A DNA stretch of 64,000 nucleotides from Hyaloraphidium curvatum SAG 235-1 (taxonomy: Eukaryota; Fungi; Monoblepharomycota), in assembly GCA_025558095.1 (NCBI GenBank), contig JAIVFI010000031.1, positions 508,810-572,809 on the forward strand, in the 5' to 3' direction. Below, piece after piece: positions 20,304-64,000 of the stretch; position 1 is the first letter of the stretch; each line of letters starts with the position of its first letter. The notes beneath the pieces were generated by a model. That model saw nothing but the letters and a program-made list of their open reading frames with translations. It searched no databases and had not been told where the DNA came from. A program made the position numbers and the translations under genes.

Positions 20304-21420
20304 GGGATTGCCACGGAAGGGGGCGGAAGCGGCTCCGCAGCCCGCCTCCCGCCGGCCCCGCCGGCGGCCCCCCGTGCCGCGCAGAGCGGGTGCGCGCTCC
20401 AGCGGCCTCGCGGCGGCGCTCATGGCGGTGTCCTGGCAGGCCCAACGGCCGCCGAACCGCTGGGAGACGGCGGACAAGCCCGTGCGGAAGTCGAAGCCCG
20501 ATTGGTGTTGCGCCGGTCGCACGGGCCGGCGCCGATCCGGCCCCCGCCCGCGGGTCCCCCCGAAAGTTGGCGATCGTCCGAAAGTGGCGGGAACGGTTGC
20601 CAGGAGAATCTGCAAGACCGTCTATCTGCAGTGCCGATCCGTGGGCTGCGGACTTCGCGGACGCCGCCATCAAGCCTGTTCGTTTCCCAGCTGCCCTCGC
20701 ACGCTACATCCCGTCTGGGCTCCACATCCAATAAAGTGATGCCAAAGGAAAGTCATCGCGTCGCAGGCCAGCCCGAGCGGAAAAGACGATACGAAGCTCA
20801 CAAGCGCCGATTTCGTGCTCATTCGCCGCGGAAAGCCCATCGACTCAGCGAGCGCTGTGCTCTGTGCGCCATCAACAACAGTGACCGCGCTCTAACAGAC
20901 AGGCAGGGCATCTCCGCGTCCGCGGTGGCCCCCTTCGGATTGGGCGACCGCCTCGCGGCCAGGAAACGCCTCGCTCGGTGCTCCGCCCCGCCCCGGCCCG
21001 CCGCGCCCACCTGCACCTGCGGTGCCGGCGCTCCACTACCGCCCCATCGACCTCGGAAGAAGCGATGCCGAGCCGGGCGCGGACGAGGGGAAGATCGGAA
21101 CGGACCCGCCGGTGCGTCGTGCGTCGACGTCACCTCTGCGGATCTGGCTGTGCTTACCAACCCAATGGCCCACGGGGCACATTCTCCATTTCAAACCCGG
21201 CGCGTGCGGCTTCGGATGGCCGCAGTCGCCCGACGCAGTTCTCTTCTCGGGGTTGCGGGCTGTCGGGCGCTTTTTGGGAGATCTTGGGTGAGCACCCGAG
21301 TGAGACCCTTGAATTCCAGGATCGACAAGGGACGCTATATGTAGACCAGGGACGCTGGCCCGCACCCCCCAAACTCTTTCCCTGACTAACTAGCTCTCTC
21401 CATACATCTCTCCCGACCCG

Positions 21421-24017
21421 ATGACCCGACAATTACTCTTCCCCGCCGCGGCCTTTGTGGTCGCGCTCGCGGCCGCTGCGGCGCCGGCCGCAGGGCAGGC
21501 CCTGTTCGGCGTCCCACCTTTCGCCCCCGACGCGCCGCCCGGCGCCACGCCCGACCCGTGGACCTCGCAGCGCTTCTCGGCAACCGTCGACGCGGCGCTG
21601 CTCGGGGCCGCCGGCCCGCGCGAGATCGCGCTGGACATGTTCGGCCGGCGCGTGGTCGCCGTGAAGGACCGCTCCGAAACCGACGCGAGCACCGGCGCCG
21701 TCTCGTACTTCGGCACCGTCGCCGGGGAGCCCATGTCGTCGGTGGTCTTTGTGGCCGAGCAGGACGGCCGCGTGGCAGGCACCGTGCGCACGATGAACAA
21801 GTCCTACGCCGTGCTGCCCCAGGACTCGTCGATCCACTCGGTCGCCGAGCTGGACGTGCGCGCCTTTCCCGCCGAGGCGCACCCCCTCGTGCCGCAGGAA
21901 GACCTGCCGCCCGTCCCGGCCCGCTTCTGGACCGGGCGCCGGCTCTCCGCGCGCCAGGTCGCCACCATCGACGTGCTCGTGGTCTACACCCCGCAGGCCA
22001 GGGCGGCCGTGGGGGGCACCGCCAACATGGAGGCCCGGATCCGGCTGGCCGTGGCCGAGACCAACCAGGCCTACGCCAACTCCCGGATCAACATGGTCAT
22101 GCGGCTCGCGCACGCGGCCGAGATCGGCTACGGTTCGGGCGGGGACATGTACCAGGACCTGGACAGGCTCACGGCCACCTCGGACGGGTTCATGGATGAG
22201 GTGCACATCCTGCGGGACAACTACGGCGCCGACGTGGTGTCGCTCTGGGTCTCGGTCGGCTCGTACTGCGGCCTCGGTGCGTCCTTCGCCCTCCCCGCCT
22301 GCCCGCTGATCTCACCCGTCACCTCCCTCGCCCCGGCCCCAGGCTGGCTCATGGGGGCCCCCAGCCTCGGCTTCGCCAGCTACGCGTTCAACGTGGTGCA
22401 CTACTCGTGCGCCACGGGCTACTTCTCCTTCGGCCACGAGGTCGGGCACAACATGGGCGCCAACCACGACCGCGCAAACAGCGGCGGCGGCCAGTCGTAC
22501 CCGTACTCGTACGGGTACCAGGAGCCCACGGGGCTGTGGAGGACGATCATGGCGTACGATTGTCCGAAGGGGTGCGCGCGGCTGCAGTACTTTTCGAACC
22601 CGGCCGTGACCTACAACGGGCGCGCCATGGGGATCGACTCGACGCAGGCCAACGGGGCCGACAATGCGCGGACGTTCAACAACCACGCGCAGATCATGGC
22701 CGCCTGGCGCGCGGAGGTGACCAACCCGCGGACCTTTACGACGTGGACGGCCAAGACCACGACGTCGCGCACCCGCACGTCCTCGACGTCGCGCACCTTG
22801 ACAACGTCGACCACTAGGACGGCGTCGACGACCCTGACCACGGTTGGTCCCTCCGCGCTGCGTTCGTTGCTTCCCCGTAGTTAAATCCCCGCATCCAGAC
22901 CTCCCGCACGACCACCACCCTCTCCCCCAACGCCTTCACCCGCTGCGGCGGCTCCTTCCCCATCGAAGACCTCCTCTCCACCAACTCCTCCCTCATCTCC
23001 GACATCCCCACCTCCCTGACCCGCCTCGCGGTGCGGATCGACATGCAGCACACGTACCTCTCGGACATCGAGATCACCCTCGTCCGCGAATCCGACGGCC
23101 TCTCGGCGGTGCTGTACCAGTTTGCCGGCTGCGAGTTCACCGCCTACGAGGGCGCCTCCTTCTCCTTCGACGACGGCGAGCCCGCGCTCCTGGGCGACGC
23201 CTGCGACGGCGGCGGGTTCAGGCCCGCCGAGGGCTTCGCGAGGTTCCTGGGCGGGCCGGCGGGCGGGAAGTGGACGCTGTCGGTGCTGGACGGGTGGCAG
23301 GGGGAGACGGGACAGGTGTACGGGTGGTGCATCGAGGGGGAGGCGGCGCCGGCCTCGTCGACGGCGACCGCGACGACCGAGGCGCGGGCGAGCACCACCG
23401 GGACGGCGAGCACGACGCGGACGACGACGTCGCGGAGCACCTCGAGGACCGAGACCACGGTGGGTTGCATGCCTGCGGTGCCCGATCGCGCGGCTGACGA
23501 TGCCGGTTCCGCCTGCAGTCCAGGACGAGGACGACGTCGACGTCCCGCACCCGTACCACGACTACATCAAAGGTTGGCTTATTCCTCTTCAAGGCGCACG
23601 CTGCAGCCGCTTACCTGCCTTGCCGCCCGGCAGACGCGCACTACGACTACGTCGAACACCCGCACGACGACGACTTCGAAGACCCGCACGACGACGGACA
23701 CGAAGGTGGGCTTCCCGCTGCCAAAGTTTCTGCGAAGGCGCTCACCTTTCCGATCGCAGACGCGCACCTCGACGACGACGAAAACCGCCACCTCCAGCAC
23801 CACCCGCGTCGCGCGGACGACCAGCGCCCCCGCGCAGGACGGTTCGCGGCGCACGACCAGCAGGCCCGCCGCGCTACCTGCCAAGTCCACCACCCGCGGG
23901 CCGGCAGGGGACGCGGTCCGGAGGCCCACGACGCGGAGGGGGAGGAAGGCGACGACGAGGCGCAGGACCACGACGAGGAAGGCGAGGGGGAGGGTGGGGG
24001 CGTTCCAGTGGGGCTGA
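21421..24017 (+). CDS. Secreted reprolysin-like M12B zinc metalloprotease with proprotein-convertase P domain and Thr/Arg-rich tail (copy 1); introns 22277-22342, 22843-22898, 23460-23518, 23573-23633, 23706-23759
   Basis: Signal peptide, IDVLVVYT, YGADVV, HEVGHNMGANHD zinc motif, Met-turn RTIMAY, and P-domain HTYLSDIEITL...GKWTLSVLD. Confidence 0.9.
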
Positions 24018-26811: not shown

Positions 26812-29552
26812 TCATCCCCACTGCAACGCCGCCACCCTCCTCCTCGCCCCCCGCGTCGTCGTCCTCCGCCTCGTCGTCTTCCTCCTCACCCGCCGCGTGG
26901 TAGCCCTGGCGTCCGCCGCCGGGGCACGCGTGGTCTTTTTTGCGGGGAGCACGGCGGCGCCCTTGCGCGTGGTGGCCTTGGACACGTCCCGCGCGGGGAC
27001 CGAGGTGGTCCAGCGGCCTTTGCGCGTGGTGCGCACGGTGGTCGTGCGGGTGGTGCGGGTGGTGCTGGTGGTTTTCGTCTGCGGATGGGAGGATGAACAT
27101 CGTTGAAGCCCGCACATGCATGGCAAAGCATACCTTCGTGTCCGTCGCGGTGCGGGTCTTCGTCGTCGTTTTCGTGCGGGTCTTGGTGTCCGTGGTCGTG
27201 CGCGTCTGCCGGACGGCAAGTTAGGTGAACGGCCGCCGCTGCGCGCCCCACGAAGAAGCCCACCTTTGTGTCCGTGGTCGTGCGCGTGTTGGAAGTCGTC
27301 GACGTCGTTTGCGTGCGAGTCTAAGGGGGGGGGGGGACGGGAATGGCACCGTCAGCTTGCGATCGGGCCCGTGGAACCAGACAACCAACCGCGGTCTCGG
27401 TCCTAGTGCGGCTCGCAGTCTCGGTCCTAGTGCGGCTCGCGGTCTCGGTTCTAGTGCGGCTCTGCGACGTCGTCGACGCCGTCTGCGTCGCCGATGCGGT
27501 CTCGGTGCTGCTCTGCGCCGGCGCTGTGGTGGTGGGCGCGGGCTGGGTCGTGCTCGCAGCCCGAACGGTCGTGCTCGCCGCCGGGACAGTCGTGCTCCTC
27601 GCAGGCGCCGTGGTGCTCTGCGCCGGCACCGTCGTGCTCTCGGCACCTCCGGCCGTCGACGTGGCCGGCGCCGCCTCGCCCACCATGCACCAGCCGAACA
27701 CGGTCCCCGTGTCCTGGCTCCACGAGTCCAGCACCGACAGTGTCCACCTCCCCGCGGCCGGGGCGCCCAGGAACCGCGACAGCGCGTCAAGCGGCTTGAA
27801 CACGGTGCCGGTGCAGCTCGTCCCCAGCGGTGCCGATGCCGCGTCGTCAAAGGCAAAGGTGACCCGGGTGGTGGCGTACGGGATGCACCCGGCGCTGCGG
27901 TACAGCACGGCGGCCAGGCCGTCCGAGGCGCGGGTGAGGGTGATGGTGAGGTCTGAGAGATACGTGTGCTGCATGTCGAGCTGGACCGAGAGGCGGGTGA
28001 GCGGGGAGGCGAGGTCCGCGTCGAGGGTGCTGTTGCGCGAGCCGAGGTCGACGATGGGGAAGGAGCCGCCGCAGCGGACGAAGCCGTTGGCGGGGATGGT
28101 GGTCGTCGTGCGCGAGGTCTGCATGCAGATGCGTTAGGAGGGGAGGCAAGGGGTCGCGGCGGGAGCGTACCGTGCTCCGGGTCGTCGAAGTCGTCCGGGT
28201 GCGCGAGGTCGTGGTCGTGGGGGTCTTTACCGTCCACGTCGTCACCGTCTGCGGGCTGGTCACTTCGGCACGCCACGCGGCCATGATCTGCGCGTGGTTG
28301 TTGAAGGTCCGCGCGACGTCGGCGCTGTTGGCGAGGGTCGAGTCCACGCCCATGGCGCGCCCGTTGTAGGTAACCTCGGGGTTGGAAAAGTACTGCAGCC
28401 GGGTGCACCCGTTGGGACAGTCGTACGCCATGATGGTCCTCCACAGGCCCGAGGGCTCCTGGTACCCGTACGAGTAGGGGTACGAGCCGCCGCCGCCGCC
28501 GCTGTTTGCGCGGTCGTGGTTGGCGCCCATGTTGTGGCCGATCTCGTGGCCGAAGGTGAAGTAGCCCGTGGCGCACGAGTAGTGCACGACGTTGAAGGCC
28601 CAGCCGGCAAAGTCCAGGCTCGGGGTGCCCATGAGCCAGCCTGCGGGAACGGAGAGGGTTAAGAGTTGGTGCATTTGCCAGCAGGTCCAGACGAACCGAT
28701 GCCGCAGTAGGCGCCGACCGAGGTCCACAGCGAGACGACGTCGGCGCCGTAGTTGTTGCGCAGGATGTGCACCTCGTCCATGTACCCGTCAGAGACGGCG
28801 GTGAGCCGGTCCAGGTCCTGACCCATGTCGTTGGCCACGTAATTTATCTCCTGCATGTACGCCAGCCGCATGACCATGTTGATGCGGGAGTTGGCGTAGG
28901 CCTGGTTGGTCTCGGCCACGGCCAGCCGGATCCGGGCCTCGATGTTGGCGGTGCCGCCGACCGCCATCCTGACCTGCGGGGTATACACGACGAGGATGTC
29001 TATGGTGGCGACCTGGCGCGCGGCCAGCCGGCGCTCGGTCCAGAAGCGCGCCGGGACTGGCGGCAAGTCCGCCTTCGGCACCTGAGGGTGCGCCTCGGCG
29101 GGGAAGGCGCGCACGTCGAGCTCGGCGACCGAGTGGATCGTGTCGTCCTGCGGCAGAACGGTGTACGACTTGTTCATCGTCCGCACGGTGCCCGCCACGC
29201 GGCCGTCCTGCTCGGCGACAAAGACCACCGATGACATCGGCTCCCCGGCGACGGTGCCGAAGTACGAGACGGCGCCGGTGCTCGGGTCGGTTTCGGAGCG
29301 GTCCTTCACCGCCACGACGCGGCGCCCGAACATGTCCAGCGCGATCTCGCGCGGGCCGGCCGCCCCGAGCAGCGCCGCGTCGACGGTTGCCGAGAAGCGC
29401 TGCGAGGTCCACGGATCGGGCCTGGCGCCGGGTGCGGGGTCGGGGGCGAAGGCCGGGACGCCAAAGAGCGCCTGCCCGGCTGCGGGCGCCGCCGCCGCCG
29501 CCGCGAGCGCGACCACGAAGGCCGCGACGGGGAAGAGTCTTTGTCGGGTCAT
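26812..29552 (-). CDS. Secreted M12B metalloprotease with P domain and Thr-rich tail (copy 2, inverted paralog of 21421..24017), multi-intron
   Basis: Near-identical N-terminal exon, HEIGHNMGANHD, RTIMAY, HTYLSDLTITL, GRWTLSVLD, and the same QWG* end. Confidence 0.9.
27391..27462 (-). repeat. 3 x 24-bp coding tandem repeat (SRTRTETA)
   Basis: GCGGTCTCGGTCCTAGTGCGGCTC repeated three times with one mismatch each in copies 2 and 3. Confidence 0.85.
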
Positions 29553-30135
29553 TGGAGGTTCAAGACAAGGTTCCGAAGGCGAAAAAGGTATCCCCTTGAC
29601 GGCAAGCACTGGTTCGTCAGCAGCCTTGACGGCTGGAGATGCCGCAGTTAGGGACTGGCTGTGCTCGAACCTTTGCTCGGAGGCCCCGCGTGCGGGGGTT
29701 TTTCGTGGAGCAGCCAACAGTGATGCTCAGTCTGGCTCCGGATCACCGGCAACCTGTCAGGTGTGGTCGTCGTGGCGCCGGGGTTGGTTTCGCGTCCCTG
29801 GGACGCTCGGTCCAGGCCGTAGGCGGTCCGCCGTTCCGATGCCGCCCGGCGCGCTCACTCAAAGAACTTACTCACATCGCCGCACTCAACCTTCTCAAAA
29901 GGTTTCACTGGGAGCATGATACGTAGCGGACCCGGCCGGACCTCGCCCGTGGGCATCCTCCGGTCTTGTGACGGCGCAAAAGGTCCAAAGGCAAGGTGAC
30001 GATCCGATGGAACGATTTCTTAGCGGTGGCGAACTGTCTGAATCGACCTTGTAGTATCGTAGCACGGCCTGACCGCCCTAGCACAATGTCCACGACCCGT
30101 TTGTCTGCCTGATTCAACCCGGTTGACCGTCCGAA

Positions 30136-51074: not shown

Positions 51075-51745
51075 GTTTGCGTTGACGATGCTGCTGCTGC
51101 TGCTGTTGAGGGCCTGAGGGCGCGATGGATGTGTCCCGTGGTGGACCGATGACGGTGCGTGCAGTCAACATATTATGACCCTCGTCCCGACGCGACGCGG
51201 TCTCATCAGCCAGCTAGTGTAGTTCTAGTTTCGCTTGATCGTTGTTTCGGCTACTAAGATAGACTAGTGCCAGATTGGGAAGCGTGCGCGCTGGGCCTTT
51301 TCCCCGCGTCACCGACCTGCTGGAACGTGAGTGCTCCGCTGGCTGGTGCTTCCCGCCGCATCCAGGAACGCACTCCGTGCCAGCCAGCCCTCGAAGCTGC
51401 AAAGCACGACTAGTGATTCTCGTATACTGGAATGGGTTGATCGGGAGGCGTGATTTGCGTTTAGTGCGAGTTTCAGAATGAACGGGACTCTGTAGAAAAC
51501 CGCACCGTGCGGAAATGCGAACAAAACGGCGCGCAAGCTTCTGAGACGCGCACTCCCGCGTCCACACCCCACACTCCCACCCGAATTCCACACGCGCCAA
51601 CCGCGCGCCGTACTTGCCCGGTCGCCGGCGACATGCCTTAGAGTCATTGGTGAGAGATCTGGGCACGCTAGGTGGAGATCTACATGCGTTTTGCAGCGGG
51701 CCGGGGGTGGCTCACTTTTGTTCCACCTTCCACAGACGGTCCACG

Positions 51746-53270
51746 ATGGAAGGCCACTCTCCGGGCCCGCCCCCCGGTGGTGGAGGCCCGTCTGGCGTAA
51801 AATACTTCGGTCCCGACGACGACAAGACCTGTTCGACTTGCGGCAACGCGGGGCATGCCTCCTACTACTCGCCCTATTGCCCTCAGACGCGCAGCATCAA
51901 GGCGCGTGGGCGGGACCACGGCGACGAAGAGACTGGGGTGTTCAAATATCGGGACTTTGTCTGGCGTTGCAACTTCCAGAAGTTTTGCAAGAGCACCCCG
52001 GTCGCACAGGTGCTTCGCAACATGATGGTCGCCACTTCCCAAGCCCGGTTCGAGGCGACCCGTTTTCTCCAGCTCTTCCTTTCGCGCACCGTCGGCTCTG
52101 ATCTGATTCGACACCCGCTGAAGGACTCTTGCCTTACCAACCTCTTCAAGGCGTTCTACGCCCCGTCGGCAGACAGCTACGCCACCCCCCGGCGCTACCT
52201 TGCAGCCTTCCACCCGTCTGCCCCTGCCATCTTTGCGGAGCATTTCCTACCTCGGCACACGGCGGCTTCTTGGCCCGGAGACTCCAACGCGTGCCGAAAC
52301 CTCTCCGTCATCATCGTGCACAACGTGACCAGCTCTTTGCGCAGGCAGTATGCTGCTGCGTGGAAGAGGCACGTGCTTTACAACATCGGTGCCTGGACCG
52401 TTGGATGGCTGAAGGACATGCTTGCTGTTGAGCTCCGGGGCGTGTGGGAAGAGATGCCCGCATGGCAACGCACCAAGCTTGCCTGGTGCATCTACACGTA
52501 CGTCACCCTCGGTGAGACCGACGGCATGGACATCTCCAAGCGGAACAAGGCTGCCAAGAAGAAAAAGCGCAAGGCATCCGAGATGGAGGATGACAACGAA
52601 TACGACAACGAGCCGGCAGAGCTTAAGCCGTTCGAGCTGCCAGAGCTTCGCACGCGCACCTGGCCCAACGGGTGCTTTGAAGCAGCCTTACTTTACATCG
52701 AAGAGGTGCGCCATCGTCTGGGGCCGACCGACCGGGGCAAGAAGACGTCTGGAGGTATCATTGTCGGCAAACCCAACGACGCTTATCTGTGGCTTTCCAA
52801 CCACCTAAACTGGCTACGCTTCTTGGCCGGTTTACGCAACAGGGAAGATGATGAGCATCGCAAGTTTGCGCTCTGCCCGCTTTTCAACTGGAAGCGGGCC
52901 TTCTTCACCGTGGACACAACCCTGCTCTTTTCCATCCTGGACCACGTTCGCGCGCCCGTACTGGCCGAGAAGGGCGCCCCGCGTTCCCTGCCTGAGACAG
53001 CGGGCGCATTCACAACAGACAAAGCGGCTCGGGATGCATGGAACGAGCACCTGTTCCGACTGAGCCCGAACATGCATCGCAAGGAGCGCGCCAAGGTGCC
53101 CAGCAACGGCAGACCCAAACCGGCGTCCCGTGTACGGAAATGGGACTACTCCTACTCCTTTGCAACCGACTGTGAAGGCGTTTCGGTGCTGTGCGCCAAA
53201 CGCTACAGGGCAAAGACGAAGAAGGAGCGGGAGGAAGCCGAAAAGCAGAGGGATGAGATGGACGAGGAGG
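51746..53270 (+). pseudogene. Fanzor1-like (TnpB-related RNA-guided nuclease) gene, N-terminal part only, interrupted by an LTR at 53271
   Basis: N-terminal CSTCGNAGH...CP knuckle. KFALCPL...FFTVDT..L and YSFATDCEGVSV match Fanzor1 WED motifs (FxxxP...xxIDT, TDGxxVSV). The ORF is cut before the RuvC-I DP motif. Confidence 0.75.
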
Positions 53271-53746
53271 TGCGACGGTCCGGGTCGGAACCGGGCCTGA
53301 AGCTCTAACCCGGCGCGCGAATCCCGCTCGGCTCTTCGGGTCGGATAGGCCCTGAATATGAATAAGCGAACAGCGCTGAAGATACTTGACTGTAGCCGGG
53401 GGAAAGAGGTTACGGGATGTCTCCCGGGGTGCGTCCCAAGGGCTCTCAGAACGAGGATCCGGCCGGGCGGGGTTCCGCACGGTGGTCGAACGACACGGAG
53501 AGCACGTAGAGTCAACTGGCGATCAAGATTGTACTGTTACATGTCCCGCTCTTTATATATCCCAGGAGGGTGGCTGTGCCGAGTCACTTGCGAGTCGCTC
53601 GCGAGTCGCTCGCGAGTGACTCGCGAGTCACTCGCGAGTCGATCGCGAGTCGATCACGAGTCGATCGCGAGGACCGACGCCTCCACGCCTCCGAACCGAA
53701 AATGAAAATACCCTTGTCCGAATGTCAGACGTCCTGTACCTTCGCA
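53271..53746 (-). repeat. LTR (476 bp), 3' LTR of the minus-strand copy; PPT at 53747-53757
   Basis: Reverse complement of 59665-60140, with termini TGCGA...TCGCA. Confidence 0.92.
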
Positions 53747-54165
53747 CGCCCCCACCCAAAAGAAGGCGCCGCCCTCGGCGCCACGAAATCGAAGATCCTC
53801 CGCGGAGTGACGTCATGCTTGCAGTAGAAGATGTTGAAGGCCGAGGTGGAGACAACAGATGTTGGAGAGTGTAGGGCCGAAGGGTGGCTTAGGCGTCCTC
53901 AAAGTCGACGTCGGCGTCCGCCTCGTCGTCGCTCGGCGGCGGGGCGCGGAGCCGGCGGGTAAAGCCGAGAGCGAAGGCGGCATGCACGGCTGAGCCGTCC
54001 GCGGCCGAGGGGGTGTAGACCGGGGGCATGGTCGACTTGTAGGGAGCGGCCGGGATGTCGTCGTACAGGGCGGCCAAGAGGCCGTCGTCCTGCGAGACGA
54101 TGGAGGAGGCGTCGCTGCTGGACACGCTCTCGGGGCGAGGAGCTGGAGGTTGCATATCCCCAGCC

Positions 54166-55449
54166 TCATCGTCGGAGGTGACGAGGTCCTCGTCCTTGAC
54201 GCGGCCGACCGGCGTGGAGGTGACCTCTTTTGAGTGGGCGGCGGTTGGCATTCTTCTCCAACTCCCAGCACTCGTCCTGAGCATGCCCATCCATGCCACA
54301 GAGATGGCAGTGGCGAGGCTGGAAGCGCTTCTGGTCGCGGTACTCCGAGGTGAAGGGCCGGCGATCCTGGCGCTCCTGCTGCTGGCGGGGCCGATCGATC
54401 GGAGGAGGCCTCGCGGGGGGGTTCGACCTGGTCTCCGCGGCCTGAACCTGATGGCGAGGCGACGGCAGCAGCTTGGTGATGAGCTCCTTGATCTCGACGA
54501 GGTCGCTGTTCGGCCCCGAAGGCGGCAACGGCTGGCTCCGACGAGACTGGAAGGGGACGAAACGGCGCGGAGGCCGGAACGCAGACTCCCCCGGCGGTCC
54601 ACCGGTGGGCCTGCGCTCTCCCTTAGGCTCCAGCAGCTTTGTGAGAGCCTGCGTATGAGCCAGCAGCACTTCCGTCGTCGCCTTGTCGGTCGCCTTGGAG
54701 GAGCCCGAAGACGAGTGCTGGCCGACCAGAGCCGGAATCTCCGAAATCGAGTTCTGGCCCAGGAAACGGATGTCGCGCGGCTGCGCAGGGCCCGATGCTT
54801 GCATGACGGTGCGCATCTTCTCGATGACCTTGGTGACGGAAGTGCGGTTGATGAGGTGATCCCCGAGGAGCTCCAGCGCCTTCCCGCGTAGCTCCGGGCG
54901 CAGTCCGTAGAGCAGGTTCTGGCCGTACACGCTGTCTTGCACTTCCCTGGTAGGAAGCTGATCGCCGCAGTGCGAGAGGAAACGCGTCTCGGCCAGGGAT
55001 ACGCGGGCAACGAAGGCGTCGAGGGTCTCATCGTTGGTCATCTGAATCGTGTTGTAGTGCCGGCGATAATGCATCGATGCGTCCAGGCGGGCCTCTTGCT
55101 GCTCGAGCGTCGCCGTTACGCGGTCAAGAGCGTGCTGCTCCAGGTTGCCGACATTGACGAGGGTGTTGAGCACCGGGTGGAGTGCGTCGAGGGCTGCGCG
55201 GATGGGCATGACCGCGGAGAAGGCGGCCTGCTCGACCTTGTGCAAGTGGGCCGTCGTCTGGGAGTGTCTGACGTCGAGGTCGGCCCGGAGGTCGTCCAGC
55301 CGGGTCGAGAGGGAGGCAAGCGCCGACCGATAGTCCGGGGGTACGACGCCAGGCAACGCAGCGACGGGCGCAGTCGCCGGCGGCGGCGCCGTGGCCACAT
55401 GCGGCCGGCGGGGCCGCAGGTTGTGGCCGGCAGTCGTGGGGGTCGCCAT
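54166..55449 (-). CDS. Chimeric ORF: ORF3 N-terminus fused in frame to the Gag C-terminal half (including the CCHC knuckle)
   Basis: 55449-55084 is ORF3 sequence. 55083-54230 is the reverse complement of gag 61064-61917. Confidence 0.8.
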   Translation of the reverse strand: MATPTTAGHNLRPRRPHVATAPPPATAPVAALPGVVPPDYRSALASLSTRLDDLRADLDVRHSQTTAHLHKVEQAAFSAVMPIRAALDALHPVLNTLVNVGNLEQHALDRVTATLEQQEARLDASMHYRRHYNTIQMTNDETLDAFVARVSLAETRFLSHCGDQLPTREVQDSVYGQNLLYGLRPELRGKALELLGDHLINRTSVTKVIEKMRTVMQASGPAQPRDIRFLGQNSISEIPALVGQHSSSGSSKATDKATTEVLLAHTQALTKLLEPKGERRPTGGPPGESAFRPPRRFVPFQSRRSQPLPPSGPNSDLVEIKELITKLLPSPRHQVQAAETRSNPPARPPPIDRPRQQQERQDRRPFTSEYRDQKRFQPRHCHLCGMDGHAQDECWELEKNANRRPLKRGHLHAGRPRQGRGPRHLRR

Positions 55450-55817
55450 GGGAGACGGTAGCGGCGAGGTCGACGTTGGGTGCGTAGTCCGCGGCCGCGG
55501 CCTCCTGTGGTCCGCCGCTTATATGGTGCGAAGCGCAGGCAACTCGCGAGTGCATCGCAAGTCGCTCGCGAGTGACTTGCGAGCGACTCGCGAGTGACTC
55601 GCGAGTCACTTGCGAGTCAACCGCGAGCCAACCGCGAGTCAACCGCGAGTCAACTGCGAGTCGAGTCGACCGCGAGTTCGCCCGCACACCGGGTCACCAG
55701 TCCCCGCCACGGGGGACGGGGCGCGAGCGAGGGCCGTACGCCATTGCGTCGACGAAAGCGCTCGCGGGGGATCGCGACGTAGGGTCCAGAAGAGCTGGGG
55801 GGATCTCCGCGCCTGTC
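55450..55817. promoter_or_regulatory. Putative bidirectional internal promoter with 11-bp palindromic repeat array (about 55541-55678)
   Basis: About 12 units built on ACTCGCGAGT / ACCGCGAGT lie between divergent ATGs at 55449 (-) and 55818 (+). CATATAAG is on the minus strand about 70 bp upstream of ORF3. Confidence 0.6.
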
Positions 55818-56803
55818 ATGAGTGCGGAGCTGCCGAACGTCGTCCCGCCGAGTTCGTGGTTCGAGGTTCGGTTGCCGACCTTCGACGTCCTGCTGTGCAC
55901 CAAGGTAAGAGCGTAGCGGCGTGGTCCTCGAACGGGAGCTCAGCGCCGCGCCAGGAGGACGACGTGGTCGACTGCTTCCTGCAACTGGTGCGTCTGGCCG
56001 CCATGCGCGGGATGTTGCCGCTGGCCGAAGAGGCTGGGAACGTCGTTGTCGAGGTCCGAGTGCTCCGTCGGCTCGTCGCCGAGCTGCGCGAGGCCGGCGG
56101 GACCGCCAAGCTGCGCGAGGCTGGCGGGGCCAGAGGCAACGACCCGATCGCGGCCGCGGCCGCAACCCGGACCTCCGGCGTCTTCCTGCCGGCGATGTCG
56201 TCGAAGGGTGCGCCTTCCGTCGGCGAGGGCGAGTCGGCGGCGGACTCGAGGGAGGAGCTCGAGGCGGCCGACGAAGTCCCCGTGCTGTCAGTCACGCTTC
56301 ATGCGCCCTCTTGGGAGCTGGACCACTTAGGCGACTTCGAGGCCGCCACTGAACAAGGGAGCGCCTTCCAGACGGCCCAAACGGCAACTTCAGGTAAAGA
56401 CGAGGGGCATGTGGTGCAGCGCGGGGAGGCCCGGGAGCAGATTGCGCAGGTGAACGGCTCGACGGGAGTACGCCCCACAAGCGCTGATCGTCACTGAATG
56501 TGCCAGATGAAGAAGTCGTCGCCGGTCTGGGGCTTGAAGGCGGAACGGGTGACGAAGAAGGTCCCTGATGCCGTGCCGGCAGGCTCCTTCCTCCGATGGA
56601 AGATTGCCGGAACGTACGCCGGCGAACTGTACCGGAGCCCCACCAAGGGCGAAGTGGCGGTATGCTCGTTCCCGTGGTGCCATCTGGTAAAGCACAAGGC
56701 TAAGGGCCTCCTGGGCAATCTGAACACGCATTTTCAGTCCGGGTATCACAAGTTGGCGTTCGAGGGGGTCGAGGATAGGCTCGAGGTAGTACGTCGGGTT
56801 TGA
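55818..56803 (+). CDS. Antisense accessory gene of the retrotransposon; 3 exons (55818-55904, 55955-56449, 56507-56803), 292 aa, C-terminal C2H2/BED-like zinc finger
   Basis: Phase-0 introns GTAAGA..CCAG (50 bp) and GTGAAC..GCTGAT..CCAG (57 bp) link three ORF-track segments. The finger reads CSFPWC-x15-H-x5-H, with NLNTH. Confidence 0.65.
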
Positions 56804-56873
56804 GTCAGTGAAAAGCCGGGGATCGGAGCACAGAGATGGTAGTGCTGTGACCGGATAGACGTCGTTGGTGTTA

Positions 56874-58514
56874 CTAGCGACGCCGAGTCCGCATGCGCCT
56901 GGGGAGACCCGTCGGGAGCTGGAGACCAACGCGATCGGCATAGGCGCGGACGATCCCTATGGCGCCGTGCAACATGTCCAGAGGGAGCTTGGTCGTGCGA
57001 GCGAAGCCCCGCCACTTGACCTCGAACTTGAGTCCGTGACCCTGGCCCTCGTGGCCGACGATGTCCTCGACGGTGTACTCCTGCTCGTTCCCAAGCGCGT
57101 TCTCGACCTCGATTTCCTCTTCGAACTCGTTCACCGGTTCCGAGAGATCGAGCTCTTCACCGGCGGCGAGCTCCGGGGCGCGTGCGTTCCACGAGCGCGC
57201 GTTGAAGGTGGCCGACTCCCAAGGCTTGTAGCGCGCCAGCCGGTCCACATGCACAGTGGTGACGTGGTCGGTCTCGTAGACGTGTCTACACTTCCAGGTG
57301 AGCTCGGTGTGGCCTGACTCCTCGATGCGGTAGGGCCCAAGATAACGAGAGACGAACTTGCCCGGCTCGCCCTTGCGCGGTCGTTCTGGTCCCCAGATGA
57401 GCACGAGGTCGCCGGGGCGGAAGGTAATCGGAAGCCGGGTAGCGTTGGCCTTGGCGTTCCGAGTCTCCGCCGCTGCGGCCATCTTCTCGGCCACCAGGTC
57501 GTAGGCCGCACGAAGCTGCGCCACGAGCTCCACGACGTAGGTCCGCCGGCGCTCATCCTCTGTCTTCTTGTCCTCCTCGTCGCTGGCCCGCAGGTGCACT
57601 GGCTCGCGAATCTCGGTCTCGTCGTAAAGTAGGTCGAGCGGAATACGAGCATCCCGACCATGCATCAGAAAGAACGGAGTTTCGCCGGTCGTCGCGTGGA
57701 TGGAGGTCCGGAAGGCAAAGATGACCCCCACGATGTCCTCGTCCCATGTCTGGTAGTTCTTGGAGACCGCTGCGCTCAGGGCGTCGATGATCCACCGGTT
57801 CGGGCGCTCCGCGAGGGAAGCCCTGGGATGCCCAACCGTGACCAGGCCCCGGTTGATGCCGAGTAGCTTGAGCAGGTACTCCATGTAATGGTTGTCCAGG
57901 TTCGAGGCGTTGTCGTGGTGAATCCGCTTCGGAAGACCGTGCTCGAGAATCCATCGCGTATAGAGCAGCTTCGCCGTCGTCGGCCCAGAGAGGTCCGGAG
58001 TCGGATACGCCGCGACCCATTTAGTGAACGGATCGTAGACGACGAGAAGGTACTTGTTGCCGCGGGGCGTGGCCGGATTGATCTCGCCGATGTAGTCGAT
58101 GTAGATGTCCTCGTTGGGACCTGTGAGAGGAACCGATTTCAGTAAGCCCTGGTTCGATACCGAAGGCATCTTCCGGGTCATGCATGTAAGGCAGGCTCGC
58201 GTCCAGCGGCGAACGTCGTGCGCCATGCCGACCCAATATACGCGGCGCCGCAGATTGCTGTACGCCCGGTGTCGCCCGACGTGCCCGCTCAGGGGATCGT
58301 CGTGCGCACGTTGCAGGTAGGCCTCCCTCAGCTCGTGCGGTATCACGAGCTGGGTGACCGGGATACGACGGGTACCAGTCGCGAGTACATCGCGCCGGCA
58401 GAGCACGCCGTCCGTAGCGAGGAAGTACTGCTCGCCGTACTTCTTGCAGAATTTGGCCAGATTCACGTTGGGAGGGAGCTCCCCGTCTCGCACGAAGCGG
58501 ATCAGCGCGCTGGT
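56874..58514 (-). CDS. Pol 3' fragment: integrase (HHCC, DDE, GPY/F) plus chromodomain, 5'-truncated at an inversion junction
   Basis: AHDDPLSGHVG...CLTC, IDYIG, HDNAS, AERPNR, TGETPFFLMHGR, YLGPYRI and YTVEDIVGH...FEVKWRGF. Confidence 0.93.
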   Translation of the reverse strand, partial: TSALIRFVRDGELPPNVNLAKFCKKYGEQYFLATDGVLCRRDVLATGTRRIPVTQLVIPHELREAYLQRAHDDPLSGHVGRHRAYSNLRRRVYWVGMAHDVRRWTRACLTCMTRKMPSVSNQGLLKSVPLTGPNEDIYIDYIGEINPATPRGNKYLLVVYDPFTKWVAAYPTPDLSGPTTAKLLYTRWILEHGLPKRIHHDNASNLDNHYMEYLLKLLGINRGLVTVGHPRASLAERPNRWIIDALSAAVSKNYQTWDEDIVGVIFAFRTSIHATTGETPFFLMHGRDARIPLDLLYDETEIREPVHLRASDEEDKKTEDERRRTYVVELVAQLRAAYDLVAEKMAAAAETRNAKANATRLPITFRPGDLVLIWGPERPRKGEPGKFVSRYLGPYRIEESGHTELTWKCRHVYETDHVTTVHVDRLARYKPWESATFNARSWNARAPELAAGEELDLSEPVNEFEEEIEVENALGNEQEYTVEDIVGHEGQGHGLKFEVKWRGFARTTKLPLDMLHGAIGIVRAYADRVGLQLPTGLPRRMRTRRR

Positions 58515-59522
58515 CTCGACGCACTCCACCCGGTGCTCAACACCCTCGTCAATGTCGGCAACCTGGAGCAGCACGCTCTTGACCGCGTAACGGCGACGCT
58601 CGAGCAGCAAGAGGCCCGCCTGGACGCCCAGATCCGCCAGCAGCGTGACGAGCTCCAGGTGGTCCTCAGTGGCCGCCACCGCGAACTTGAGTTCGCCGTC
58701 ACCGCCTTGCGCCGGACCGACGACGCTCGTCTCGGTGCCATCGAGACGCAGCTCGACCGGCTTGCGTTGGTGCTCGAGGCTCAACGTCAGAACTTCAACG
58801 GCATTCTCCTGGTGGACGAAGCTACCATCGAGGAGTTGAGGGAGTTCGGCTCTTCCCTCGCCGGGCTGGTTGCTCAGACCGGGACCAACCTCGAAACCAC
58901 CATCGAGACCGTCGTCGAGACCAATCTCGCCCGTCACAACAATGGCCCCATGGCGGAGTTTGCGGCCGACCTCAAGAGCGTCCTGGCGGCCCATCTGCAG
59001 CGATTTGGGTCGGAGCAGCACAAGCAGCTCATGCTTTCAGCTCAAGACCACACCACGCTCCTCACGGCCGGCCTGAACGCGCAGCGCGAGCACTTCACCA
59101 AGACCGCCGACGAGCAACGGGCCCTCCTGCGTCGCTTCCTCGGCAATCAAGTGGCTCCCCTGGCGGGGCAAACGACGCCCGCCGTGGTCACCTCCACGCC
59201 GGTCGGCCGCGTCAAGGACGAGGACCTCGTCACCTCCGACGATGAGGCTGGGGATATGCAACCTCCAGCTCCTCGCCCCGAGAGCGTGTCCAGCAGCGAC
59301 GCCTCCTCCATCGTCTCGCAGGACGACGGCCTCTTGGCCGCCCTGTACGACGACATCCCGGCCGCTCCCTACAAGTCGACCATGCCCCCGGTCTACACCC
59401 CCTCGGCCGCGGACGGCTCAGCCGTGCATGCCGCCTTCGCTCTCGGCTTTACCCGCCGGCTCCGCGCCCCGCCGCCGAGCGACGACGAGGCGGACGCCGA
59501 CGTCGACTTTGAGGACGCCTAA
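58515..59522 (+). CDS. ORF3 of the retrotransposon (5'-truncated copy): coiled-coil protein with acidic tail, in env-like position
   Basis: Overlaps the N-terminal copy by 113 bp (55079-55191). Heptad-rich, no evident TM segment, and stops about 130 bp before the PPT. Confidence 0.75.
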   Translation, partial: LDALHPVLNTLVNVGNLEQHALDRVTATLEQQEARLDAQIRQQRDELQVVLSGRHRELEFAVTALRRTDDARLGAIETQLDRLALVLEAQRQNFNGILLVDEATIEELREFGSSLAGLVAQTGTNLETTIETVVETNLARHNNGPMAEFAADLKSVLAAHLQRFGSEQHKQLMLSAQDHTTLLTAGLNAQREHFTKTADEQRALLRRFLGNQVAPLAGQTTPAVVTSTPVGRVKDEDLVTSDDEAGDMQPPAPRPESVSSSDASSIVSQDDGLLAALYDDIPAAPYKSTMPPVYTPSAADGSAVHAAFALGFTRRLRAPPPSDDEADADVDFEDA

Positions 59523-59664
59523 GCCACCCTTCGGCCCTACACTCTCCAACATCTGTTGTCTCCACCTCGGCCTTCAACATCTTCTACTGCAAGCATGACG
59601 TCACTCCGCGGAGGATCTTCGATTTCGTGGCGCCGAGGGCGGCGCCTTCTTTTGGGTGGGGGCG

Positions 59665-60140
59665 TGCGAAGGTACAGGACGTCTGACATTCGGACAAGGG
59701 TATTTTCATTTTCGGTTCGGAGGCGTGGAGGCGTCGGTCCTCGCGATCGACTCGTGATCGACTCGCGATCGACTCGCGAGTGACTCGCGAGTCACTCGCG
59801 AGCGACTCGCGAGCGACTCGCAAGTGACTCGGCACAGCCACCCTCCTGGGATATATAAAGAGCGGGACATGTAACAGTACAATCTTGATCGCCAGTTGAC
59901 TCTACGTGCTCTCCGTGTCGTTCGACCACCGTGCGGAACCCCGCCCGGCCGGATCCTCGTTCTGAGAGCCCTTGGGACGCACCCCGGGAGACATCCCGTA
60001 ACCTCTTTCCCCCGGCTACAGTCAAGTATCTTCAGCGCTGTTCGCTTATTCATATTCAGGGCCTATCCGACCCGAAGAGCCGAGCGGGATTCGCGCGCCG
60101 GGTTAGAGCTTCAGGCCCGGTTCCGACCCGGACCGTCGCA
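59665..60140 (+). repeat. LTR (476 bp) with PPT upstream (59654-59664) and PBS downstream
   Basis: TGCGAAGGT...ACCGTCGCA inverted termini, repeat array at 59741-59831, and TATATAAA at 59852. Confidence 0.92.
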
Positions 60141-60141
60141 C

Positions 60142-60152
60142 TGGTCCGACCT
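60142..60152 (+). promoter_or_regulatory. Primer binding site, probably tRNA-Tyr
   Basis: TGGTCCGACCT lies 1 nt after the LTR CA. It is complementary to the AGGTCGGACCA 3' end that I recall for eukaryotic (plant-type) tRNA-Tyr. Confidence 0.7.
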
Positions 60153-60307
60153 CCGTGATCCTGCTCTCGGGTCTTCGACACCTCGTTCGACTTCAGTTTC
60201 GACTTCGATAATCCAAAAACAACTTCGCCTGGCACCGGCGCTTGTCGACTGCCACTCTTTTCTGTCAACCGTATTCCGTCAACCAAGTTCATTCCCCTTC
60301 GCCAAAC

Positions 60308-61963
60308 ATGGACCCCGTTCAAGAAGCCGCCCCTCAGCAGGAGGTTCAGCAGCCTCAGGAAGCTAACGATTTGCAGAACAACCCGCAGGCCCAGGCGATT
60401 ATCCAAGCTGCGCAGGCCGCGATCCAGCAAGTCGGCGCCGCCGCCAACGACGTCGCCCAACTCGCCGCCCAGCAAGCCGCCCAGCAAGCCGTCGCCGATC
60501 AGCTTGCCGCTCAGCTCGTGGCGCAACAGACCGCTCAGCAGTTGCCAGCTGCCCAAGTTCAACAGCAAGCCGCCGCCGAGCAGCTTGCAGCGCAGCAGCT
60601 CCAGCAGCTCGCCGCACAGCAGCAGGGTCAGCGGAGCGAGCAAGCCCCGGCTGTCAACGCTGCCGCCGCTGGTCTCCAGCCGCAGCAGTTCGTCGACGCC
60701 GTACGGGCCATCGTTGGCGCTCAGCCGCCGAACGATGGAAGCACCGGCCTCCCCCAGGCGGATCGCCAGGGCGGAGCCGCCAAGCTCCCGGCTCAGCTGC
60801 TGCCTGCTTCTGTTCAGCCCTTCGATCCCGCTACGCAGGACCCGGAAGACTTCTTCCGCGACCTCACTACGGTTCTCACGGCGTTCGGCTCCATCAACAA
60901 CCTCGTCAAGGTCTTCCCGGTCTTCCTTGGGCCTCTGCCGCGCGCAATGTGGCACAACATCACGCCGCAGAACCGCCCTCCGGACTATCCCGCGACGGCC
61001 ACCTATCCTCCGGTGACCCAGAACGATGTGCTTGCCTGGCTACGCTACCACTTCGAGCCCCGCGACGCATCGATGCATTATCGCCGGCACTACAACACGA
61101 TTCAGATGACCAACGATGAGACCCTCGACGCCTTCGTTGCCCGCGTATCCCTGGCCGAGACGCGTTTCCTCTCGCACTGCGGCGATCAGCTTCCTACCAG
61201 GGAAGTGCAAGACAGCGTGTACGGCCAGAACCTGCTCTACGGACTGCGCCCGGAGCTACGCGGGAAGGCGCTGGAGCTCCTCGGGGATCACCTCATCAAC
61301 CGCACTTCCGTCACCAAGGTCATCGAGAAGATGCGCACCGTCATGCAAGCATCGGGCCCTGCGCAGCCGCGCGACATCCGTTTCCTGGGCCAGAACTCGA
61401 TTTCGGAGATTCCGGCTCTGGTCGGCCAGCACTCGTCTTCGGGCTCCTCCAAGGCGACCGACAAGGCGACGACGGAAGTGCTGCTGGCTCATACGCAGGC
61501 TCTCACAAAGCTGCTGGAGCCTAAGGGAGAGCGCAGGCCCACCGGTGGACCGCCGGGGGAGTCTGCGTTCCGGCCTCCGCGCCGTTTCGTCCCCTTCCAG
61601 TCTCGTCGGAGCCAGCCGTTGCCGCCTTCGGGGCCGAACAGCGACCTCGTCGAGATCAAGGAGCTCATCACCAAGCTGCTGCCGTCGCCTCGCCATCAGG
61701 TTCAGGCCGCGGAGACCAGGTCGAACCCCCCCGCGAGGCCTCCTCCGATCGATCGGCCCCGCCAGCAGCAGGAGCGCCAGGATCGCCGGCCCTTCACCTC
61801 GGAGTACCGCGACCAGAAGCGCTTCCAGCCTCGCCACTGCCATCTCTGTGGCATGGATGGGCATGCTCAGGACGAGTGCTGGGAGTTGGAGAAGAATGCC
61901 AACCGCCGCCCACTCAACTGGAAGTCTCGCCTCGGCAACACCCCTTCGATGCCAAAAAACTAG
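60308..61963 (+). CDS. gag: Gag with Q/A-rich N-terminus, capsid-like region and CCHC zinc knuckle
   Basis: Follows the PBS. Contains IQMTNDETLDAFVARV (MHR-like) and CHLCGMDGHAQDEC. Confidence 0.9.
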   Translation: MDPVQEAAPQQEVQQPQEANDLQNNPQAQAIIQAAQAAIQQVGAAANDVAQLAAQQAAQQAVADQLAAQLVAQQTAQQLPAAQVQQQAAAEQLAAQQLQQLAAQQQGQRSEQAPAVNAAAAGLQPQQFVDAVRAIVGAQPPNDGSTGLPQADRQGGAAKLPAQLLPASVQPFDPATQDPEDFFRDLTTVLTAFGSINNLVKVFPVFLGPLPRAMWHNITPQNRPPDYPATATYPPVTQNDVLAWLRYHFEPRDASMHYRRHYNTIQMTNDETLDAFVARVSLAETRFLSHCGDQLPTREVQDSVYGQNLLYGLRPELRGKALELLGDHLINRTSVTKVIEKMRTVMQASGPAQPRDIRFLGQNSISEIPALVGQHSSSGSSKATDKATTEVLLAHTQALTKLLEPKGERRPTGGPPGESAFRPPRRFVPFQSRRSQPLPPSGPNSDLVEIKELITKLLPSPRHQVQAAETRSNPPARPPPIDRPRQQQERQDRRPFTSEYRDQKRFQPRHCHLCGMDGHAQDECWELEKNANRRPLNWKSRLGNTPSMPKN

Positions 61964-62001
61964 CTTTGCCCTCAGTGCCGCACGGCCATAGGGGGGCAGA
62001 G
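61954..62001 (+). other. -1 programmed ribosomal frameshift signal
   Basis: A_AAA_AAC in the gag frame directly before TAG, followed by a CTTTGCCCTC/GGGGGCAGAG stem. The -1 frame is the open pol frame. Confidence 0.8.
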
Positions 62002-64000
62002 ATCCAAGCTCTTGAACCACATGTGGAACCTCTTCCTGGAACTTCCCCGCTGCCGGACGGCACGGACCCTTCATCTCCTGGCGGATCGCCGGAGTTGTCG
62101 GATTCCGCGACCGATGAACCGACGGCGGAGGACCACGTTCATCATTGGCCCTTCGGGGGCACGGAGTACATCCTCTTCCTCGAGGCGGAGGCAGCTCGAC
62201 AGGCCGCCGTTCGTCAGCAGCGGGAGGCGCTCATGCCGATCGACGAGACCCTGGCCCCGCCGCCGGCAGCGGATTCGGCGTCGCCCGGCTCGGTCGAGGT
62301 CGTGGGAAACGGTGAACCGGCGGCACAGGATGCGGACGCGGGATCAGCGGATGCACCTATGCACGAGGGCCCGACCGTCCGCGCCGTTCCCGGACCTTTC
62401 GAAAGGCCCCCTCCTCCTTCCGCCTACGCACGACCACCGCTGCCTGGCCCTCGGCCTCGCCCGCGGCCACCTGCTCCGGTCGCCCCTCCGCCGGATCGCT
62501 GGACGTGGACTTCGCAAGTGCAGTTCCACTATCAGGCGGCACGCGTTTCGGCATGGGTCAACGGCGTGAATACCCCCGCGGCCCTCGTCGACTCCGGTGC
62601 CTCAGTGGTGGCGGTTCGGTCGTCCTTCTTCTGCCGGATCCACCCGTCGCCACCGATCAAACCATGGACACTCGGCACCCTCAGCACGGCCGCGGCCGGC
62701 GGAACCATGTGGGTCCGCGGAGTTGCTAAGATGGACATCCTGGTCGGGAATCAACACTGCGTCATGGACGTCGCCATCATGGACGGTCTCATGGACGACG
62801 TGATCCTCGGCACCCCTTGGCTCTCCGCCCTACGCGTTCAGATGGACTGGGAGACGCCGGTCCTCTATTTCAAGGACGATCCGGAGGGGGTCGTCGTGCC
62901 AATGCACATTGTTGCGCGACCGCTCTTCGGATCACACCTGGTCGCCCCGCTCCATTCAACCACCTCCATCACGGTCTACCCCAACGAGGACGTCTCGATC
63001 ACCGCTGAGCTGGCCCCGACGACTCCCTTGGCGACCGTCGTGGAGATGGACTTGACAGGGGTCATCGAGACGCCGAACACTTCGCCGTTCGATCGCCTCT
63101 TCATCATCCCGTCGGCGACGCCCGACAGAGACGGTCGGCTGCCGATTCTCATCCGCAACTACGGGACGACACCGGTCACGATCGGCCCGGGCACCCACCT
63201 CGGCCGCTTCCGCGTGCGGATTCCTGGATTTCTCGCTCCGGAACCGCCCACGTATCTGGCTCCCGCGCAGATCTCGATGCTGGAGCCCGAGCTGCCCCAC
63301 ACCGAACCGGCCGAATCCACGCTCACGGTCGAGGAGACCATCGATCTGTTCGCGGTGCCCTCGCCGGGATCGATTGGACCACCTCAGCCTCCCGGCGTGG
63401 AGCCTCCTCCGGTCGAGGCTATCGAGCTCAAGATGGACCAAACGATCCTGAGCGAGGGGGACAAACCTCGTTTCCATAAGCTCTGCGACCGCTACCGGGA
63501 CGTGTTTGGTCCTTGGATCGGCAAGCTGCGCAACCATCGCTTCCGGATCGACACGGGCGACCTCAAGCCGATCCACCAGATGCCGTACCGGACCCCGTTC
63601 CGGCTTCGCGGGGAAATGGACAAGATCATCGACGACCTGCTCGTGCAGGGCGTAGTCGTCCCCTCGCGAAGCCCCTGGGCCACGCCCTGCATCATGGTGC
63701 CAAAAGGGCACGGCTCGGGCGAATGGCGCCTGGTGATCGATTACCGGAAGCTCAACGCCGCCACCAAGCGCGACGTCTACCCGATGAAGAACCCAAGCGA
63801 CACTCTCGCTCTCCTCAGCGCGGCCAAGGTGTGGAGCGTTTGCGACATCCGCTCCGGCTTTTGGCACGTGGAGGTGGCCGACGAGGACAAGGAAAAGACG
63901 GCCTTCACGACGCACCGCGGTCTCTACCAGTGGGAGCGGATGGCCATGGGCTTTACCAACGCTCCTGCAACCTTTGCTCGGATCATGGACGAGCTCCTCG
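61960..64000 (+). CDS. pol: Pol (partial, runs off window): aspartic protease and reverse transcriptase
   Basis: Not in the ORF track because it has no stop in the window. Frame 1 reads ALVDSGA, VILGTPWL, SPWATP, WRLVIDYRKLN, DIRSGFW, KTAF and MAMGFTNAPATF. Confidence 0.95.

Follow-up and report, generated by a model that had tools for sequence, protein, structure and literature searches.

An array and TATA box module between two divergent accessory genes of a Ty3/Gypsy retrotransposon from Hyaloraphidium curvatum is a likely second promoter

We analyzed a window of 64,000 nucleotides (contig JAIVFI010000031.1) from the freshwater fungus Hyaloraphidium curvatum (Monoblepharomycota), which carries a Ty3/Gypsy long terminal repeat (LTR) retrotransposon of a multi-copy family. 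Behind its integrase this element has two additional genes, the sense open reading frame 3 (ORF3; ATG 55449, minus strand of the window) and an antisense gene for a zinc-finger protein (ATG 55818, plus strand), which diverge from a 368-bp spacer (55450..55817), just as an earlier examination of the letters alone (the sequence-only reading) had placed them. The spacer is a candidate internal promoter with an array of short motifs and a TATA box arranged as in the LTR. Antisense accessory genes are already known from LTR retrotransposons; for the twin array-TATA layout flanked by two accessory genes we found no description in the open literature.

Both arrays have a period of 11 bp. The spacer array (55542..55662) comprises 11 cores, the last of which lies 27 bp before a TATAA on the ORF3 strand (55519..55523, minus strand) that itself stands 74 bp before the ORF3 ATG, while the LTR array (59740..59831) comprises nine cores, the last lying 26 bp before the TATAA at 59854 in the LTR TATA box (TATATAAA, 59852..59859, plus strand). 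Measured from the last four cores, the distances to TATAA are 59, 48, 37 and 26 bp in the LTR and 60, 49, 38 and 27 bp in the spacer. Since these distances are equal to within 1 bp, the spacer repeats the promoter layout of the LTR, and since this geometry is common to both places, a second promoter, controlled in the same way as the LTR, likely resides in the spacer. The in-register runs of 11 and nine cores compare with runs of at most three in host bases 1-50000 and at most three in 1000 shuffles per region. All 12 occurrences of CTCGCGAG in the window fall within three arrays, and three of the eight TATAA places listed in the 64 kb belong to arrays. The sequence-only reading had recognized the array upstream of the LTR TATA box and a TATA-like box for ORF3, and both are borne out; of its description of the units as 11-bp-periodic palindromes, the periodicity stands, whereas the perfect palindrome ACTCGCGAGT occurs in only two LTR units and three spacer units. 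It is the half-site CTCGC that is nearly invariant, its letters being kept in 20, 20, 19, 20 and 18 of the 20 units (those matching at least 7 of 11 letters). The right half of the units drifts differently in each array, as do the distal units. The possibility that the spacer is a decayed LTR was considered and rejected, as the regions do not align beyond the array and TATA box. Among changes in the CGCG cores, six of eight are C>T or G>A, as decay of methyl-cytosine would give; CpG is not depleted overall.

The finger gene has three exons (55818..55904, 55955..56449 and 56507..56803, plus strand), encodes 292 amino acids and runs antisense to the gag-pol of its own unit, behind the integrase. 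When donor and acceptor sites were combined, two of the exon sets tried, and no more, left the frame open, one of them with introns at 55905-55954 and 56450-56506. Contigs of run X1 remove exactly these two predicted introns (50 and 57 bases, GT..AG, plus strand), and in a narrower alignment none of four X1 records covers the intron interiors. The joints are absent from X2, X3 and X4, and X3 spans intron 2 unspliced. No listed run is on record as RNA; X1 was treated as RNA on the ground that no other run skips GT..AG introns. The direction of splicing places transcription opposite to gag-pol, and the finger gene is thus transcribed antisense and spliced. Since contigs drop rare forms, spliced antisense RNA is present and an unspliced form is not thereby absent. 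In DNA contigs of X2 the depth over the finger gene is 34, roughly comparable with 39-43 over gag-pol. In a wild freshwater run, X5, one of four records is identical to exon 3 and the adjoining 3' flank over 201 bases, the other three being short and unlike; from the same study, five of 14 records of X4 are at least 99% identical, and the near-identical pieces listed fall in gag and pol. Both accessory frames are intact, with a gene-like GC content at third codon positions (GC3) of 0.82-0.87. The copies are near-identical: over 55405-56904 a single substitution is listed, which falls in the array and likely stems from cross-alignment with the LTR array. A deletion variant joins 56035-56037 to about 58075, so that the greater part of the finger gene is gone along with half of the integrase (X1, X3). 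This variant retains the spacer and the ORF3 side, occurs in DNA and RNA contigs, and is a candidate non-autonomous form.

ORF3 encodes 421 amino acids without introns (GC3 0.84-0.87). In the window it is found in two pieces: codons 1-123 (55081..55449, minus strand), which match the start of the intact protein P0008 and run into a gag insert, and codons 87-421 with the stop (58515..59522, plus strand), which match its end. P0008 (421 aa) is recorded under three accessions on one 816,567-base contig, and the two pieces are joined in contigs of X1 and X2. The layout between integrase and 3' LTR proposed by the sequence-only reading is therefore that of other copies (P0008, X1, X2), whereas in the window copy ORF3 is split by an inversion and the gag insert. 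Its view that both genes belong to the family is upheld by the intact ORF3 of three other annotated copies and the spliced finger gene in X1. The ORF3 protein lacks a signal peptide, a membrane segment, cysteine and any N-glycosylation site, and its best 19-residue hydropathy is 1.2. A structural model shows long helices with disordered ends at a predicted local distance difference test (pLDDT) score of 53. The hydrophobic period is 3.6-3.75 (7, 0 and 0 of 1000 shuffles), for which reason a canonical heptad coiled coil, with its period of 3.5, was rejected. An envelope (Env) protein was likewise rejected, given the lack of Env features and of any viral fold match in 352 rows. Among 7994 scored candidates ORF3 found only itself as a relative, the best Atlas value was 0.79, and the score for Baculo_PEP_C was under the cut-off.

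The finger protein is composed of a short N-terminal helix, an acidic middle (net charge -11) and a basic C-terminal domain (+9). Exon 2 supplies the conserved helix followed by the acidic and hydrophobic stretch, and exon 3 the basic domain, of the form C-x4-C-x16-H-x5-H. By a rule for acidic activators, 17 activator-like tiles fall within residues 116-170 of the finger protein and none in gag or ORF3; the acidic stretch points to activation. Only two matches were obtained among 1.84 billion representatives. The sole accepted relative, P0009, is encoded on another contig of H. curvatum, shows 45% identity in the finger domain (E 4e-11) and retains the C, C, N, H, S and H of that domain. Shuffled sequences equalled this similarity in none of 2000 trials for the finger domain, in one of 2000 for the N-terminal helix and in 679 of 2000 for the middle, which is not conserved. 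The other match, to the bacterial repeat protein P0010, was discarded as a chance similarity. No relative was found among 36 longer candidates or among 172 pattern matches in metagenomes. The model of the finger protein (pLDDT 43) gave no fold match.

We consider it quite possible, though short of probable, that the CTCGC(GAG) arrays of the LTR and the spacer are both targets of the finger protein, which would bind them and activate the two together. In one direction the spacer promoter would fire through its TATA box into ORF3 and, in the other, without a TATA box into the finger gene. The finger protein would serve as a transactivator in which a short helix for pairing is combined with an acidic stretch and a basic finger domain, and a positive loop would turn on genomic RNA (from the LTR) and ORF3 jointly. 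It could also act in trans on copies that lack the finger gene. An antisense position would let the finger gene keep its introns through reverse transcription, while the sense ORF3 has none. ORF3 itself would be a soluble protein of amphipathic helices needed alongside particles, as a scaffold or in counter-defence, and not an envelope. The human BED protein ZBED1 is described as binding TGTCG(C/T)GA(C/T)A with the core TCG(C/T)GA (PMC7471704); this is also the core of the arrays, a coincidence that is suggestive only. As a whole, the element may carry a foamy-virus-like circuit that was built independently, in which the LTR promoter core was duplicated at the 3' side, an antisense, intron-bearing finger transactivator of an unlisted family was added, an iteron-like array stands in both promoters, and genomic RNA and a second accessory gene are co-activated; we advance this fuller account tentatively and with some doubt. 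If it is true, the control logic of complex retroviruses arose independently in an early-diverging fungus, and a retrotransposon carries a Tas-like DNA-binding regulator that, with its target, would form a small, orthogonal pair of activator and operator. What antisense accessory genes do in LTR retrotransposons is an open question (PMC7264820), and a candidate target can now be named for one of them: a motif array equidistant from two TATA boxes, beside a transcribed finger gene.

Several observations weigh against activation of both arrays by the finger protein. The finger-gene side of the spacer has no TATA-like box, and the RNA contig of X1 that covers ORF3 is, like the other contigs, unstranded. 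P0009 has no tile that meets the activator rule, and searches of Pfam, NCBIfam and PDB gave no match for the finger protein. Its Atlas neighbors do include BED-type clusters (0.92, 12% zf-BED; 0.90, Spin-doc), but this lead is weak because the recognition value, 2277, lies under the mark of 2300. The H-x5-H spacing together with its serine also fits RNA-binding fingers of the U1/JAZ type. Such fingers have the form C-x2-C-x12-H-x5-H and bind RNA; here H-x5-H agrees, the other spacings differ, and there is no Pfam match. Both arrays fold as RNA hairpins (z -5.3 for the LTR array and -6.2 for the spacer array, reached by none of 200 shuffles each), and RNA contigs cover both. Of the BED signature C-x2-C ... 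H-x3-5-H/C (PMC7471704), the His pair H-x5-H fits and the Cys pair C-x4-C fails. Finally, the near-identical TCTCGCGAGA element supports two-way transcription in human cells without ZBED1 (PMC6192621).

Since the TCTCGCGAGA element works without ZBED1, a host factor could do the array binding. The arrays would then be host transcription-factor sites used twice, and the finger protein would do something else, such as anti-silencing that involves no binding to the repeats, or control at the protein level; we take this account seriously while regarding it as rather unlikely. The vertebrate CGCG palindrome with the same 8-bp core is bidirectional, copy-number-dependent and methyl-sensitive through host factors (PMC6192621). 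Moreover, the twin geometry requires no element-encoded binder, and an RNA contig exists even for the deletion form, from which the finger exon is missing. However, the layout of the finger protein resembles that of an activator. In the host part of the window there is no CTCGCGAG, although this is a weak point because only about two would be expected by composition.

The hairpins, their coverage by RNA contigs and the H-x5-H spacing, an RNA-binding type, would also suit arrays that act as RNA and a finger protein that binds double-stranded RNA and exports or shields genomic RNA in the manner of Rev or CERV. An export factor has a precedent among LTR retrotransposons in the CERV protein of Cer1 (PMC10309623). 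We think this quite unlikely, given that any tandem palindromes fold and that an RNA function needs neither an equal distance to TATA nor a period near one turn of the DNA helix. Alternatively, the finger protein could repress the arrays, or antisense RNA could damp gag-pol as in the case of HBZ, possibly from a start in the 3' LTR, to give copy-number control. At both introns the X1 contigs show only spliced antisense forms, and one X1 contig spans the LTR, ORF3 and the spacer into exon 2, as a 3'-LTR start would also give, although a contig over two genes does not prove one transcript. HBZ lowers sense expression (PMC10186651), and a protein bound to the LTR array, whose end stands 20 bp ahead of the TATA box, could block that box. 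Yet the acidic stretch points to activation and the family has many near-identical copies, and we hold repression to be distinctly improbable. We regard it as very improbable that the accessory block is passenger DNA, captured by the element and without a function in its cycle: the searches made found no relatives outside H. curvatum and a deletion variant does without most of the finger gene, but the array is common to the block and the LTR, both frames are intact (GC3 0.82-0.87), the splicing is exact, the finger is retained in a diverged paralog, and a wild sample contains an identical stretch.

An antisense ORF that lies between pol and the 3' LTR, is transcribed and, by the rough measure of X2 contig depth, stands in most copies, with one deletion variant known, places the finger gene with the aORF-3R genes. 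In maize Grande (gene23), rice RIRE2, Silene Retand and the fungal Boty (brtn), such genes share the slot and orientation found here and are likewise family-wide and transcribed (PMC7264820, PMC8365987). Grande gene23 is driven from a promoter of its own, situated upstream, and its product is nuclear (PMC7264820). The sequence-only reading had taken fungal Ty3/Gypsy elements to carry typically only gag and pol, to which Boty, with brtn antisense in the same slot, is an exception (PMC7264820, PMC8365987); the available text of a fungal survey (PMC3248453) contains no mention of antisense genes or zinc fingers that we could find. The present element differs from the aORF-3R cases in its additional sense ORF3, in the divergence of the two genes and in a spacer that repeats the array-TATA spacing of the LTR; its product is a C2H2 finger protein without a Pfam family, for which no homology to theirs was found.

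In foamy viruses, a second promoter at the 3' side serves accessory genes, and Tas binds both promoters, as is proposed here for the finger protein (PMC517496, PMC13220597, PMC8670036). However, these are env-bearing retroviruses whose internal promoter drives sense genes (Tas/Bet), whereas the present element has no env, an antisense regulator and no sequence link to Tas. HBZ of HTLV-1 shares with the finger gene a spliced antisense gene for a likely nuclear regulator, but it is a bZIP protein that starts in the 3' LTR and represses through host partners, while here a finger protein is encoded beside an internal array (PMC10186651). An element's own protein acting on short motifs of its own family is known for VANC of VANDAL and TnpA of Spm (PMC5735166, bioRxiv 10.64898/2026.08.24.746577). 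VANC targets are tandem repeats (PMC5735166), and the array here is CpG-dense; those elements are plant DNA transposons with unrelated proteins. The non-Env ORF3s of bdelloids, including a coiled-coil (CC) type (PMC5408684), and CERV of Cer1 (PMC10309623) are, like our ORF3, family-specific, placed behind pol and without Env ancestry. They are described as coming from spliced messages, whereas our ORF3 has an array and a TATA box of its own and is without any known relative. Palindromic sites are a feature shared with ZBED1/DREF and with the CGCG element of vertebrates, sites with a TCGCGA core, and the CGCG element is bidirectional and works in tandem (PMC7471704, PMC6192621); ZBED1/DREF are animal host factors, and the finger here fails both the C-x2-C signature (PMC7471704) and Pfam zf-BED.

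An 11-bp array of CTCGCGAG was also encountered in 12 viral and 19 metagenome loci, in none of which (0/31) did tblastn match the element. Eight of the 12 viral matches (L001-L003, L006-L009 and L012; near locus positions 6001, 3201 or 3289) place the array inside phage replication-initiator genes, and these phage arrays are likely origin iterons of one initiator group. In our reading, its presence in phages likely reflects convergence on an array bound by protein. Frames of similar appearance seem to be present at several of the 19 metagenome loci.

The assignment of the element to Ty3/Gypsy rests on LTRs with TG...CA ends, a primer binding site, a polypurine tract, a gag with a CCHC knuckle, protease, reverse transcriptase (RT) and an integrase that ends pol. 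The LTR (59665..60140, plus strand; 476 bp with TGCGA...TCGCA ends) is common to two tandem units because ORF3 and the polypurine tract (59654..59664, plus strand) precede it and the primer binding site (60142..60159, plus strand) follows; in X1 the flank of another copy diverges at 59663. The reverse complement of the primer binding site reads as a tRNA 3' end, likely that of tRNA-Tyr by an identity rule. The gag gene (60308..61963, plus strand; 551 aa) ends in a slippery A AAA AAC, and the 5' part of pol (61957..64000, plus strand), with protease and the start of RT by Pfam, follows in the -1 frame and leaves the window, RNase H falling outside it. A hairpin 3' of the slippery site was equalled by shuffles (79/200). 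The integrase (56874..58514, minus strand, within the inverted segment) has HHCC, DDE and GPY motifs and a weak match to the C-terminal chromodomain that marks chromoviruses, which scored 17.1 bits against a Pfam cut-off of 25.1 over profile positions 1-27 of 53; the relatives found for it share no more than 30% identity. From 58521 onward the contigs of X1 and X3 differ from the window, and their sequence there reads in frame upstream of the integrase. As similarity rankings without a tree, Ty3-G was top for RT among the named solved structures (E 1.5e-24; next chains 2.9e-23 or weaker), and for the integrase it gave E 1.2e-19 as against 1.3e-13 for the prototype foamy virus (PFV). The sequence-only reading had called the element complex-retrovirus-like; with an ORF3 devoid of Env features and a pol closest to Ty3 among solved structures, it is no complex retrovirus by membership, but a Ty3/Gypsy member that likely works like one. 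Contig depths in X1 were 611 for ORF3 and spacer, 198 for the finger gene, 131 for integrase and 38 for gag-pol, each a single figure per contig from which we drew no expression ranking; in X3 they were 52-58 for the element and 4.4-4.6 for the flank, which roughly hints at a dozen or so copies. X1 and X3 also contain sister families with about 85-90% similarity (window 57804-57996 and 63780-63954), and 12 of 13 of their counted differences in integrase and 20 of 21 in RT lie at third codon positions.

The copy in the window is not collinear: integrase, finger gene, spacer and ORF3 codons 1-123 are inverted, and after them come 854 bp of gag and an LTR that is inverted as well. Read along the minus strand, the order is integrase, finger gene, spacer, ORF3 codons 1-123, gag codons 253-537, ORF3 codons 311-421 and LTR. 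The gag insert (54230..55083, minus strand), which belongs to this rearrangement, is an exact inverted copy of 61064-61917. An inverted identical copy of the ORF3 3' end, polypurine tract and LTR (53271..54225, minus strand; LTR 53271-53746) lies beyond it, 53270-54225 pairing with 59186-60141, and 55079-55191 is an exact inverted copy of 58515-58627. Seven nucleotides are common at the junction 58515-58521 and five at 55079-55083, and the third junction has four inserted letters. The junctions look like template switching, with misassembly as the alternative; the read tables list none of the three window junctions either way. The records of P0001, in which the first junction is found, and of P0007, from the flank gene that is interrupted, give contigs that differ in length (206,727 and 572,809 bases), a hint that one of the junctions is present twice in the assembly.

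The LTR end of the inverted copy breaks a resident gene (51567-53317), and an X1 contig spans the junction. This interrupted gene is transcribed and spliced (an X1 contig lacks a 64-nt intron near 51670-51733), encodes an N-terminal Cys/His knuckle, and would have its remainder past the element. No match to it was found in Pfam, NCBIfam or PDB; it contains a motif reminiscent of the first RuvC stretch of Fanzor/TnpB proteins. Elsewhere in the host part of the window, 21418-23713 and 27126-29555 form a large inverted duplication, 71-89% alike, possibly of head-to-head paralogous genes.

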